From: a virus
DNA length: 64,000 nucleotides
UHGV virus genome: UHGV-0076294
Strand: one strand, 5' to 3'
Position numbers and translations under genes: made by a program
The notes under the pieces: generated by a model
What the model was told of the DNA's origin: nothing
The model's database searches: none
The model's input: the letters and a program-made list of their open reading frames with translations, nothing else
Shown here: positions 19,469 through 24,119 of the stretch, piece by piece
How the letters are laid out: every line of letters begins with the position of its first letter
Position numbering within the stretch: position 1 is the first letter of the stretch

Positions 19469-20011
19469 ATGAAATTACTTATCGATTTTTCTCTGAGTTC
19501 GTCACGCGACAGGCTAAATAAAATACTTACTGAAATGCGAAGTAAAGTGACGTTAGAATTGCACGATGCGATAGCGGTATACGAGAGAAAGCTAACGAAA
19601 GAGAACAACGGGGAGACCGTGGTGATCTTAGACGCTAAAGCGATGGTGGATTTTCTGGTAGACGTTTTAGAAAGACGGATACACGCAGTGATAGAACGAC
19701 CCTACCTGGTTCGTGTGACCGACCCAGACACTACGGTAGATTCGATACTGGAAAAAGCATTCGTTGACGCAGCACACTATTTACAAAATCATTCCCCAGA
19801 CGATTTCGAAACGATTTACGTTGGTGTTATACAGCAACAGAATGCTGAAACCAACATAGTCGATACTGTGTGCTGGAGCGATATTCTTACTAATGAAACC
19901 ATGTCTCGCATTCGAGATATCTTTATTGAAAATTTGGCATTAGTAAAAAGGGTGTGTAGTTCCGAGATTATTTATTTATCATCGAAATACGAAAAACCTA
20001 AAGGGGTATAA
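19469..20011 (+). CDS. hypothetical protein
   Basis: 180-aa ORF starting 1 nt after previous stop. Confidence 0.55.
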   Translation: MKLLIDFSLSSSRDRLNKILTEMRSKVTLELHDAIAVYERKLTKENNGETVVILDAKAMVDFLVDVLERRIHAVIERPYLVRVTDPDTTVDSILEKAFVDAAHYLQNHSPDDFETIYVGVIQQQNAETNIVDTVCWSDILTNETMSRIRDIFIENLALVKRVCSSEIIYLSSKYEKPKGV

Positions 20012-20013
20012 CC

Positions 20014-20538
20014 ATGGATATTTTAATTCAGCTTCGTAAGAAAACAACCATTGCCACGCCGATAGCGTTAGAGGAGAAAATCTCTGGCGCGGTTGCACGC
20101 AAGCTCTGTGGTGCTCACGGCTTTAGCAGTCATCAGGAACAGGTCGTTACTGCCGCCACATTACACAACTTACGGCACACAGTACATTACTGTTTAGCTG
20201 ACAACGTCACCATCACTCTTGATGATGGCGCAGCAGCCGACCAACTGCGTCGTGAAATTGACCACAAGATCGGCGTTTATAAAAGACGTTTTGATCGTGC
20301 CTGTGCACGTTTAACCGATGACAAGGAATTATGGAAACGTTTGAAACTTGAAATTGAGTATGCGGCGCAGCGTTACGGGATTGGCGGTACCGAACCGTTG
20401 CTGTCCGAACAAGAAATCATGTTAGCAATCGAAGTTTACATCACCGTTTGTATCGCCATCCTGAAAGAAACCGACTACGAAATTACAAAAGCGTTGTTAA
20501 ACACCGCAGACAGACTCACCCCAATTTTAGGACAGTAA
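20014..20538 (+). CDS. hypothetical protein
   Basis: 174-aa ORF; AAAGGGG RBS. Confidence 0.55.
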   Translation: MDILIQLRKKTTIATPIALEEKISGAVARKLCGAHGFSSHQEQVVTAATLHNLRHTVHYCLADNVTITLDDGAAADQLRREIDHKIGVYKRRFDRACARLTDDKELWKRLKLEIEYAAQRYGIGGTEPLLSEQEIMLAIEVYITVCIAILKETDYEITKALLNTADRLTPILGQ

Positions 20539-20539
20539 A

Positions 20540-21025
20540 ATGAACTTAAATGCAATTATCAATCTCTCTAATAGCGACATTGTCCACGAGTTTCTGAACC
20601 ACTGCGATCGCACAGAACAGTCTATCCGTAACATGTTAGCTCCGAAAACAGTGGATGCCATTTGGATAGCTTCACAGGCAGCGGGCGTTATCGTTGCAAG
20701 ATATCGCGCGACATTACTAATGAGTCTGGACATTTTCTTCGATCGACCAGGGCCTATTACATGGACTTCTATCGGACGTCGGCTTTATGACATACGTATC
20801 GAAACCCTACGCTCGATAATTAATGGCTGGCACAACGGGTATATGCCTGACGTAATAGTACCCTACACTGTTCCCGAATGGCGACGCTTTTATAGTCAGA
20901 TTTGGAGTAATGAAAGCGTTTATCATGAAATAGTGGCTCTTATCAGTGCTGACCAAAGCCAACTTGCATACCAGCTATGGGAGTGGCTAAAAGCTAATTA
21001 TCCTGATTACGTCAAAATCGACTAA
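20540..21025 (+). CDS. hypothetical protein
   Basis: 161-aa ORF starting 1 nt after previous stop; terminator follows. Confidence 0.55.
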   Translation: MNLNAIINLSNSDIVHEFLNHCDRTEQSIRNMLAPKTVDAIWIASQAAGVIVARYRATLLMSLDIFFDRPGPITWTSIGRRLYDIRIETLRSIINGWHNGYMPDVIVPYTVPEWRRFYSQIWSNESVYHEIVALISADQSQLAYQLWEWLKANYPDYVKID

Positions 21026-21030
21026 TAGAC

Positions 21031-21065
21031 ACCCTAGCTTCGGCTAGGGTTACTTTATTTTTAAC
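21031..21065 (+). terminator. intrinsic terminator
   Basis: ACCCTAGC-ttcg-GCTAGGGT followed by TACTTTATTTTT. Confidence 0.65.
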
Positions 21066-21084
21066 CATTTTAGGAGAATATACC

Positions 21085-22017
21085 ATGTATTTGTACAAAA
21101 GTAAAAAAGTAAAAGGTATTAAAGACTGCCTTAGACAAATGGGGAGTCAGCATCTAGAAAATGTCATGGAAGAAAATCAAACAAAAGAAAATCCTGTCTC
21201 GAAATGGATAAAAAAGAATCGTAATCATCTAACCAATAGCTTTATACCGTATAATGAAGATTTAGGTCTCAAAGATCCACGTTCCCTTCACGCTCAAACA
21301 TTGGCAATTGGATGGCTATACGGCGGGGCTTCCTTAATATCCGATCGAGCACTTAGAGAACTTGTTTTTGAGACTGAGATGCCCAGTAAATTCCCTGAAG
21401 AATGGTTGGACTTTATACCTACTTGGACTGTGGCAATCGATGTAGGTAAAGAGGATGAGACTTTCTTTCTCGGTTATCGAAAAAATGGGAAGAGAAGGTT
21501 TATTATAATTGCTACAAATACTGATTACGGGTTAACAGAAGGCGTTACCACGATTGCCACTTGTTCGTTAGAGCTTCGTAGTGCAGGAAACGGACTTGTG
21601 GAAATCGACTATGCCGACGGTGTGGAGAACGAACAAGAAAAGATGCTATGGTTATCTCTGGCCAAAGCCGCCACATCGATGATATTTCTGTGTACGCTAA
21701 TCCCACCTAATCTCAAAACGTCTTACAATGACGTTAAGTTCAAAGAAATCAAAAAGAACGGCAGTATTAGCTACGAAGTCAAACCTCGTGAACGTGATGT
21801 TAAAGTGGATATCACACCAGGACAAGTAAAATATCTAAAAGGATTTAACACCGACTTGAAAGCCATGCAGGGTATCAAACACGCTAAAGCTGCGCACATT
21901 CGTCGTGCCCACTGGCGTAGATACTGGGTTGGTCCAAGAAACGGTGAAAGAAAAAGAAAACTTTGCTGGATTCCACCGACATTTGTTCGCGGCTACGTAC
22001 CCCACACGCAAGACTAG
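21085..22017 (+). CDS. hypothetical protein (paralogue of 22028-22912)
   Basis: C-terminus AAHIRRAHWRRYWVGP...WIPPTFVRG nearly repeats in next gene; RBS TAGGAG. Confidence 0.6.
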   Translation: MYLYKSKKVKGIKDCLRQMGSQHLENVMEENQTKENPVSKWIKKNRNHLTNSFIPYNEDLGLKDPRSLHAQTLAIGWLYGGASLISDRALRELVFETEMPSKFPEEWLDFIPTWTVAIDVGKEDETFFLGYRKNGKRRFIIIATNTDYGLTEGVTTIATCSLELRSAGNGLVEIDYADGVENEQEKMLWLSLAKAATSMIFLCTLIPPNLKTSYNDVKFKEIKKNGSISYEVKPRERDVKVDITPGQVKYLKGFNTDLKAMQGIKHAKAAHIRRAHWRRYWVGPRNGERKRKLCWIPPTFVRGYVPHTQD

Positions 22018-22027
22018 GAGAATTATA

Positions 22028-22912
22028 ATGTTAAGACGCAGAATTTATGGAGACACGCTTCGACGTATTAGTGAAGCTATAGAGACTGCACACAAAGACT
22101 TGTTTGGTCTGAAGGAAGATCGTTTTCTAACGTTTGTCAGGGAACACAAGAGGCAACTTCCTGTAACCTTTCTGCCCGTTAACGACCCAACGTACCGTGT
22201 GTTCGGCACCACCAAACAGGTGCCGTATTCTATTCGCCAATCGTTAGGTTTGGGCTGGCAATACGCAGGTATTGAAATTATCTCTGATAAAGAGTTGATG
22301 GGACTACTTGCAGACACAGAACGTTTAACGGATATTCCGTACGCGTGGATTGAAGCAATTCCTTCATTCACCTTTTCCGTGACTGTAAAGATTAACGAAC
22401 TACCCGCTACGCTCTTTATCGGTCGTCGTAAATTCGAAGGTGAGGAAGTATTGTTCGTTTTACGATGGGTGGAGATAAATCAGCGGCACTGTTGGTCAAC
22501 CAAGATTTATCGGTTCAACAGAAAGGCAGATGACTTTGTTAGTTTAGAGCCTTACTTTGCTAACGAGTCAAAGGACGAGGAACTTCTGGATGAGGTACAT
22601 ATCGGTTTATATCTTTCCTCGCGGGTGAAGAAATCGGAACGCGAGAGACGGGAATACCGTGGTAGAACGACACGTTACGTACCTGATACAGAAATCCTCC
22701 CACGCAGAGAACCTGTCGTCGTTGACGTAAGTCCAGTACAACGCGAAGACTTAGAAAAACAACGCAGGGAAGGCAGGAGAATCTGTTTAACGCCTCATCG
22801 CGCAGCACACATACGCAGGGCTCATTGGAAACGGGTCTGGTGTGGGCCAATGACAGGACCACGCTGGCAGGAGTGGCGATGGATTGCACCCACCTTTATA
22901 TCTGGTTTTTAA
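22028..22912 (+). CDS. hypothetical protein (paralogue of 21085-22017)
   Basis: Start set at ATG 22028 after AGGAGAA RBS (ORF track 21905 overlaps upstream gene); C-terminus AAHIRRAHWKRVWCGP...WIAPTFISG. Confidence 0.6.
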   Translation: MLRRRIYGDTLRRISEAIETAHKDLFGLKEDRFLTFVREHKRQLPVTFLPVNDPTYRVFGTTKQVPYSIRQSLGLGWQYAGIEIISDKELMGLLADTERLTDIPYAWIEAIPSFTFSVTVKINELPATLFIGRRKFEGEEVLFVLRWVEINQRHCWSTKIYRFNRKADDFVSLEPYFANESKDEELLDEVHIGLYLSSRVKKSERERREYRGRTTRYVPDTEILPRREPVVVDVSPVQREDLEKQRREGRRICLTPHRAAHIRRAHWKRVWCGPMTGPRWQEWRWIAPTFISGF

Positions 22913-22927
22913 TGTGAAAATAAAGAT

Positions 22928-22975
22928 TACCCCTAGACCACAAGGTCTAGGGGTAGCTTTTACTTTTTATTTTTT
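22928..22975. terminator. bidirectional intrinsic terminator
   Basis: TACCCCTAGACC-acaa-GGTCTAGGGGTA flanked by T-rich runs for both strands, between convergent genes. Confidence 0.65.
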
Positions 22976-23722
22976 GTTTGCCTTCAGCGCTTTCAGGCGT
23001 TCAGCCGTCACGTTCAGACATTCAATCAATTCGTTCACCTGTTTCATGAACAAACCAAACAGTTCAACCCAATCGGATGCAAAGTCTAACATCGCTGTCA
23101 GTTCTTTTGCCACGTTAGGATGAATGTTTTGTTCAGACAGAATCGTTGCAGAGGCTTTAATAGACTCGATGGATTTGTCGATGTTCGTACGAAGTTTCTT
23201 CGTGATTTCAACGTTCAGTGCTTTTGCACGGTTAAACGCAATATCGATCTCCGTAGCACTGTGGTACGTTTTCTCAATCGGACGCTGGTCAATAACGTTG
23301 TTGATGTAAGACTTAGCCAACTGGTTAACCAGGTCTTTCGGATTCACGTTACGTAACGGAATGTTAACGTTTTTATAACGGAAACCGATAGGTAATGACA
23401 GTACGCCCACATCATGTGTAAGGGCGGAAAGTTGCAACTCAACAGGTAAAAGGACACCGTCGTAGATCTTCTGTAATGAACTCCATACCGATTCTAAGCG
23501 GTTAATGTGATCCATTACGTAGGTATTGAAGCCTGGCGGTACAATAACCAACATGCCTGCAAAGTGTAAGAATTTTTCCTGTTGCATCCACTTGGAAACG
23601 TCTGACATGTCGTCGTAAGTGGTTAATGCAATCTCTTGTTGAGGGCCACTGAACCCTTTGGGTAAGATTGCAGACGCTTTAGCGGCAAAGCTAGTTAACG
23701 CTGCAAGTGGATTTACGTTCAT
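22967..23722 (-). CDS. hypothetical protein
   Basis: Lone minus-strand 251-aa ORF inside a plus-strand block; own terminator and divergent upstream region. Confidence 0.55.
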   Translation of the reverse strand: MNVNPLAALTSFAAKASAILPKGFSGPQQEIALTTYDDMSDVSKWMQQEKFLHFAGMLVIVPPGFNTYVMDHINRLESVWSSLQKIYDGVLLPVELQLSALTHDVGVLSLPIGFRYKNVNIPLRNVNPKDLVNQLAKSYINNVIDQRPIEKTYHSATEIDIAFNRAKALNVEITKKLRTNIDKSIESIKASATILSEQNIHPNVAKELTAMLDFASDWVELFGLFMKQVNELIECLNVTAERLKALKANKK

Positions 23723-23819
23723 TTAAAACCTCGGATTATAAGTCAGGGTTACATAGTAAAGTCTTTTTACAGTTCATCCTGAACTTATGACCGAGATTAT
23801 CTCATAAAGGTAAAGCTCG

Positions 23820-24119
23820 ATGAAAATCAAATTACTGACTCGAAACACCACGCCTCGTCTGGAACCGGAAATCTATCTTACCCCGGTGAAAAAAGACAAA
23901 GAAGGTAAGCCTATTCAAGTAGGTAAGATTCTTAGCGTGACCTCTTTACCTAACGGTAAGCGCGTGATGGAATTAGAAATCGACGAGCGCAACAAACGTC
24001 GTTTCGAGTCTATTGAGAACCCCTATCCTGAAAAATCGGAAGAAGTCACCGAGTGGGTAGAGACCTACTTTGAATTCTGGCACAAACGCCGTCTTCTTCT
24101 TCCGACCAAGAATCGTTAA
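23820..24119 (+). CDS. hypothetical protein
   Basis: 99-aa basic ORF immediately upstream of the recombinase-like gene. Confidence 0.5.
   Translation: MKIKLLTRNTTPRLEPEIYLTPVKKDKEGKPIQVGKILSVTSLPNGKRVMELEIDERNKRRFESIENPYPEKSEEVTEWVETYFEFWHKRRLLLPTKNR

Follow-up and report, generated by a model that had tools for sequence, protein, structure and literature searches.

Tandem genes assigned to the AcrVA2/FinQ family at a variable locus of a phiKZ-like jumbo phage of Enterobacteriaceae

Tandem paralogues at the locus

We analyzed two adjacent genes, paralogues A and B, in the UHGV virus genome UHGV-0076294, a stretch of 64,000 nucleotides (nt) that is called the window at its full length. A (21085–22017, plus strand) encodes a protein of 310 amino acids (aa), and B (22028–22912, plus strand), which starts with ATG, encodes one of 294 aa; judged from their sequences, both are divergent members of the AcrVA2/FinQ family. 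The window belongs to a phiKZ/SPN3US-like jumbo phage of Enterobacteriaceae. It encodes a split multisubunit RNA polymerase beta, a tail sheath, a tail protein of 2,377 aa that includes a transglycosylase region, RNase H, and a UvsX-like protein that is 81% identical to the SPN3US protein.

A and B were compared by BLASTP with composition-based statistics. About 300 residues were aligned at 25% identity (E 4e-26), indicating that the two are true full-length paralogues. A first-pass annotation of this DNA had described them as a tandem paralogue pair; its coordinates, protein lengths, and quoted peptides were exact. A low-complexity artefact was rejected, as the similarity is full-length and composition-corrected. 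Residues 1–234 of A were 19% identical to B and the last 76 residues were 41% identical, in agreement with the conserved tail and the differing N-termini described in that annotation. The distance between A and B equals that of either protein from the single-copy homologues of other jumbo phages. A recent tandem duplication was rejected on this ground, and the split is either ancient or the result of two independent captures.

The central block described earlier, GW...ISD...P...P, was present in both proteins. It occupies codons 76–112 of A (21310–21420, plus strand) and codons 76–112 of B (22253–22363, plus strand), with W77, D87, P104, and P112 in each. The putative effector motif of the tail occupies codons 269–303 of A (21889–21993, plus strand; AAHIRRAHWRRYWVGP...CWIPPTFVRG; H271, R273, H276, W295, and P298) and codons 259–293 of B (22802–22906, plus strand; AAHIRRAHWKRVWCGP...RWIAPTFISG; H261, R263, H266, W285, and P288), with AAHIRRAHW at residues 269–277 and 259–267, respectively. 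A six-frame scan of the whole 64 kb found the pattern H-[ILMV]-R-x-[AG]-H-[WYHF] only in A and B. The region of A from 21085 to 21740 (plus strand) is a variable N-terminal and middle module, which is exchanged among close relatives and is presumed to recognize the target.

Each gene is preceded by a ribosome-binding site (RBS) of sequence AGGAG on the plus strand, read from the sequence in the context TAGGAGAAT. The RBS of A is located at 21072–21076; that of B, at 22016–22020, lies over the stop codon of A and 8 nt before the ATG. A longer GTG open reading frame (ORF) from 21905 was listed for B by the program alone. The ATG start is favored because this ORF overlaps A and because the gene calls of relatives give 294 aa, not the longer form.

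The pair is bounded by terminator-like hairpins. On the upstream side, ACCCTAGC-TTCG-GCTAGGGT and a T-tract (21031–21060, plus strand; hairpin at 21031–21050) form the edge of the cassette. Only about 20 nt separate this hairpin from the RBS of A, and a sigma-70-like promoter is absent. On the downstream side, a bidirectional hairpin (22927–22956) is common to the pair and to the convergent minus-strand gene at 22967–23722; its position (…TACCC…GGGTA…) is kept in SPN3US, EC001, and Asesino. GC-rich hairpins followed by T-runs mark gene boundaries here and in the intergenic regions of relatives (L007, L008, L009, and L010).

Assignment to the AcrVA2/FinQ family

The crystal sequence of AcrVA2 (7ci1) was matched by A in phmmer at E 1.9e-4, through ...HTKRPHIRRGHWHGYWQG...VRWQPAVFV. 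A profile of 11 sequences (A, B, and nine relatives) matched it at E 2.6e-9 in two segments, which placed GW...D on W79/D89 and HIRRAHW on H286/R288/H291 of AcrVA2 (the PDB index in the 7CI1 profile alignment is offset by +1). W77 and D87 of both proteins are aligned with W79 and D89, and the H-x-R-x-x-H triads, H271/R273/H276 in A and H261/R263/H266 in B, are aligned with H286/R288/H291. The blocks pointed out in the first-pass annotation are the same five positions that have been mutated in AcrVA2. The motif had gone unrecognized in that annotation, but it defines the AcrVA2/FinQ family (Pfam PF26125; PDB 7CI1).

Database assignments gave the same result. A matched PHROG 6160 at E 5e-37, and precomputed matches to PF26125 ("AcrVA2-like") at E 1e-5 or better were found on the 310/311-aa and 294-aa genes of related contigs; close homologues of A and B likewise carry precomputed PF26125. 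Scans of A and B with Pfam-A, NCBIfam, and PADLOC gave no match. The Pfam and NCBIfam copies were also blank for members labeled PF26125, so these blanks are uninformative and are not evidence against membership.

We aligned 162 diverse family members to evaluate conservation. The two histidines and the arginine of the triad and the distal tryptophan were invariant (162/162), and A and B have all of them. The two prolines of the central block were likewise present in 162/162, the equivalent of W77 in 161, and that of D87 in 127. An allele of A with 95% identity (P0001) reads LISNQAL in place of LISDRAL in the window, changing Asp at residue 87 to Asn; this fits the retention of D in only 78% of the family.

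At a threshold of E ≤ 1e-3, an exhaustive profile search found 4,849 clusters (50% identity), of which 1,125 remained at E ≤ 1e-30; the family is spread over viral contigs of all sizes and many bacterial phyla. The first 70 to 85 or so residues are variable across the family, since the matches mostly start near the W block. Structural models made with AlphaFold2 (AF2) were weak, with predicted local distance difference test (pLDDT) values of 56 for A and 64 for B and low confidence in the N-terminal 70 residues of A and 60 residues of B. Both low-confidence models begin with helices, continue into a beta-rich middle part that includes a long helix, and end in a small C-terminal domain of four strands, which is the layout described for AcrVA2; a Foldseek search with these weak models gave no match.

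AcrVA2, the founding member of the family, recognizes the newly made chain of a chosen target and causes a translation-dependent loss of cas12a mRNA that depends neither on the promoter nor on the codon sequence (Marino et al., bioRxiv 10.1101/2022.11.29.518452). The mutations H286A, R288A, and H291A abolish the down-regulation of mRNA and protein while target binding is kept, and W79A and D89A weaken AcrVA2 function (bioRxiv 10.1101/2022.11.29.518452). About 1,800 orthologues have been described on plasmids and megaphages, mostly without Cas12a, with conserved C-termini and divergent N-termini, and non-Cas12a targets were proposed for them; translation-dependent, polypeptide-specific mRNA loss was shown for AcrVA2 alone (bioRxiv 10.1101/2022.11.29.518452). 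The family is thus already described, and homologues in huge phages have been reported previously. The first-pass annotation had stated that its view would fail if the motif matched a well-characterized domain of mundane function. This is half the case: the motif does belong to a described family, but one whose function is not mundane, and the mechanism of its founding member is unusual and partly understood. Binding of nucleic acid or phosphate by the tail, which the annotation had suggested, is plausible by analogy, since the motif is required for mRNA loss in AcrVA2.

A and B differ from AcrVA2 in several respects. Outside the motifs, the identity to AcrVA2 (Moraxella bovoculi prophage; PDB 7CI1/7CI2) is only about 10%. 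AcrVA2 is carried by a Moraxella prophage, whereas A and B are carried by a lytic phiKZ-like jumbo phage of Enterobacteriaceae. They occur as two tandem copies without a neighboring acrVA1-like partner, and they presumably act on something other than Cas12a.

The family hidden Markov model (HMM), built from A, B, and 160 relatives, matched FinQ of the IncI plasmid R621a (E 2e-56). This protein contains RPHIRRGHW and a RPHIRRGHWHTYWTG...WLPP tail. FinQ has an enterobacterial host range like A and B, but it is plasmid-borne and single-copy, whereas A and B are encoded on a jumbo phage and not on a conjugative plasmid. In direct comparisons, only the tail is similar to FinQ: 39 residues of A matched at E 6e-9 and 13 residues of B at E 0.001. 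The R621a gene (L161; 45396–46175, minus strand) is a RefSeq coding sequence of 259 aa, which starts with IISD..., within the conserved block, lacks the W-block region, and has stops in frame upstream. It may be N-terminally truncated or mis-started.

Single-copy homologues in PHROG 6160 are present in jumbo phages of Erwinia, Salmonella, E. coli, Dickeya, and Klebsiella: Asesino gp235, EC001 MGA_211, SaP7 ULF48428.1, and the proteins of Alexandravirus and FBKp24. They are 20–30% identical to A or B and have the same motifs, and all are annotated as "hypothetical protein".

Copy number and allele exchange in related phages

A megablast search with 20000–24000 against phage records gave no match, and no near-identical cultured phage was found. 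Exact or near-exact copies of the locus were found in metagenomic contigs of 107–225 kb, in one NCBI bacterial assembly, and in one Enterobacter ludwigii "plasmid". The assembly (GCA_043498625.1) encodes the exact A protein on a contig of 219,983 bp. The plasmid record (NZ_CP134650.1; Enterobacter ludwigii 51A:C "plasmid unnamed1", 222,441 bp, circular, non-mobilizable) is collinear with the locus and contains both paralogues. The probable explanation is a jumbo phage genome that the isolate carried or that was co-assembled with it, and the record suggests Enterobacter as a host. A tblastn search of plasmids with A found nothing but this 222-kb relative of the window phage, and a scan of genome contigs with A alone confirmed no relative. 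The relatives of the window phage are from Enterobacter, Salmonella, E. coli, and Erwinia.

The number of copies at this position varies from zero to two. SPN3US has none: its gp213 and the convergent gp214 are separated by nothing but a hairpin of the downstream type. One AcrVA2-like ORF is located at the same point in EC001, SaP7, and Asesino, between the gp213 and gp214 homologues and upstream of the UvsX-like gene, together with an extra hairpin, a T-tract, and an RBS. The window lineage has two ORFs at this point. The extra upstream hairpin is missing in SPN3US, which is without the gene. The insertions look like hairpin-plus-ORF units, in which the accessory gene brings its own hairpin.

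Among 28 phage records with 80–90% UvsX identity, four carried a homologue, and the gene is accordingly accessory. This bears on an alternative role, in which A and B regulate expression of the phage itself, for example by shutting off early transcripts, possibly as a heteromer. Such a role would agree with the position of the pair inside a conserved early/replication block, co-oriented with its neighbors, with the short gap between the hairpin and the RBS of A and the absence of a sigma-70-like promoter, and with the close packing of the two genes for translation, in which the RBS of B lies over the stop codon of A. We consider it unlikely, as a gene absent in SPN3US and most of its species group is not part of the core program. 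A heteromer is further opposed by the independent assortment of A and B alleles described below.

The first-pass annotation had proposed examining single versus duplicated copies among related phages. Among the sampled loci, the tandem pair was confined to the lineage of the window itself; an HMM scan of the fetched loci found it in 11 loci, with A at 71–100% identity, and both copies were intact in all 11. All 67 other viral loci with a match had a single copy within ±4 kb, as did 68 of 70 loci in bacterial genomes, the two exceptions being a truncated neighbor and a split ORF. A contig of a Blastocatellia metagenome-assembled genome (JAJTWZ010000024.1) showed the only other clustering of more than one family member: a partial ORF of 224 aa lies directly upstream of a full-length copy (L107), and another copy (L100) is about 6.6 kb off.

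Comparison of genomes that are about 95% identical overall revealed three divergent segments, which assort independently. The first is in the upstream 161-aa gene (about 20550–20950), whose alleles assort independently of the A allele. The second covers the first 220 or so codons of A (21075–21740), with nucleotide identity of 52–85% compared with 93–100% from about 21750. The third is the whole of B in L016 and L018, two IMG/VR contigs (225 and 221 kb), where a B allele with 61% protein identity stands alongside an A allele with 90%. The N-terminus of this B allele (MTTNNRLYGKALRR...) is different, and its RBS has surroundings like those in EC001 and SaP7.

For codons 1–234 of A compared with L001, the synonymous divergence (dS) was 1.38 and the ratio of nonsynonymous to synonymous divergence (dN/dS) was 0.18, whereas the conserved flanking genes showed dS values of 0.07–0.33. 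The last 76 codons of A had a dN of 0 and a dS of 0.18. A burst of positive selection in situ on the front half of A was rejected, as dN/dS was 0.18 and dS, too, exceeded that of the flanks roughly tenfold; the elevated synonymous divergence at this low ratio indicates recombinational replacement by old divergent alleles. One breakpoint coincides with the start of the conserved C-terminal module of A. Thus, the front and middle module of A is exchanged by recombination on a constant tail.

The dN/dS of B was 0.06, and both copies are maintained by purifying selection. This makes it scarcely credible that either gene is a functionless duplicate in decay. Loss of one member of a tandem pair is common, and the N-terminal 60 residues of B and 70 of A are predicted at low confidence. 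Yet both proteins keep all invariant residues of the family, their dN/dS values are in the range of 0.06–0.18, and both are intact in every one of the 11 related loci; at an identity of 19–41% the split is old, and a dead copy would have decayed.

Two further genes upstream of the pair were inspected. The 161-aa ORF directly upstream of A (20540–21025, plus strand) showed 45–73% aa identity and dS of 1.5–2.5 among otherwise about 95%-identical relatives. Searches of PHROG, Pfam, and PADLOC gave no match for it, and it may represent a further accessory or conflict gene of this hot spot. The 174-aa ORF (20014–20538, plus strand) had a dN/dS of 0.47 against L005 (81% aa identity), rather high next to its neighbors, and no PHROG or Pfam match. 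The small neighboring genes obtained no assignment in the Pfam and PADLOC scans.

Possible function and targets

A and B form a terminator-bounded cassette of two AcrVA2/FinQ genes, which is dispensable at the species level and probably has AcrVA2-like silencing activity, most likely against two targets. By analogy with AcrVA2, the variable N-terminal and middle part of each protein would bind a specific target peptide, most likely during translation of the target protein. Loss of the target mRNA would then be triggered by the domain that holds the H-x-R-x-x-H triad, a small, basic beta domain at the C-terminus. A and B most likely silence two different targets, which is the most economical reading because they share only 19% identity outside the tail. 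The first-pass annotation had regarded duplication with divergence as a hint of target-specific variants. This idea fits the evidence that binding and effector functions are separable in AcrVA2 and that the front and middle of A circulate as divergent alleles on an unchanged tail. Overall, the earlier interpretation is partly supported.

The organization of A can be compared, as an analogy only, with polymorphic effector and toxin loci, in which a constant C-terminal module is likewise combined with exchanged N-terminal and middle modules among near-identical genomes. The arrangement is the reverse of that in classical polymorphic toxins, as the variable part of A is the presumed recognition part and the constant part is the effector. 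A and B also differ from such loci in being without immunity genes.

The assignment to the family raises the question of whether A and B are literal anti-CRISPR proteins (Acrs) against Cas12a (type V-A), like AcrVA2 of Moraxella bovoculi. They keep the same essential residues, and huge-phage proteins clustering with AcrVA2 were proposed earlier as Acrs. However, the relatives of the window phage are found in Enterobacter, Salmonella, E. coli, and Erwinia, hosts that to our knowledge do not usually carry Cas12a. Identity to AcrVA2 in the recognition part is only about 10–20%, the presence of two different copies would be hard to explain, and the DNA of phiKZ-like phages is already protected from CRISPR systems that target DNA. 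Homologues are also typically present where Cas12a is absent (Marino et al., bioRxiv 10.1101/2022.11.29.518452). We judge the anti-Cas12a role quite improbable and do not file A and B as anti-CRISPRs. With homologues mostly found where Cas12a is absent, enterobacterial hosts, and DNA shielding in phiKZ-like phages, a host defense factor or a product of a competing mobile element is a more likely target than Cas12a.

A related proposal is that A and B act like FinQ, as weapons against competing conjugative plasmids or co-infecting phages and not against host immunity. IncI plasmids of Salmonella and E. coli encode FinQ, a member of the same family that was reported to lower F transfer-gene mRNA (bioRxiv 10.1101/2022.11.29.518452). 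The hosts overlap, and presence or absence of the cassette together with allele exchange is typical of conflict genes. On the other hand, the similarity to FinQ is confined to the tail, and it is not obvious what a jumbo phage that is strictly lytic would gain from blocking conjugation; F transfer, the target of FinQ, is irrelevant to it unless plasmids compete. We give this proposal a minor but appreciable chance. It is a variant of AcrVA2-like silencing by the two-gene cassette with a different class of target.

More tentatively, the pair may be a two-channel, re-targetable silencing module. The H-x-R-x-x-H tail would serve as a recombination anchor for swapped recognition modules and a stacked second copy, and the module would destroy the mRNAs of host defense or competitor proteins during their translation in the cytoplasm. 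The cytoplasm is the one compartment that a nucleus-forming phage cannot shield; nucleus formation by the window phage is assumed from its relatedness.

We know of no bacterial protein other than AcrVA2 that recognizes a nascent polypeptide and triggers the loss of its mRNA. What is new in the sampled data is the tandem arrangement, the variation in copy number from zero to two at a single locus, and the exchange of presumed recognition modules on a constant tail. Related jumbo phages with 0, 1, or 2 copies at the same position provide a compact comparative system, including natural chimeras in which a differing presumed recognition module is joined to an identical effector tail. Specificity mapping and target discovery thereby become directly testable in tractable enterobacterial hosts. 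If the proposed silencing module is true, the alleles found here would amount to a natural specificity library for mRNA decay directed by nascent chains. The "hypothetical proteins" of cultured jumbo phages from Erwinia, Salmonella, E. coli, Dickeya, and Klebsiella become annotated candidates for a role in counter-defense or inter-element conflict.
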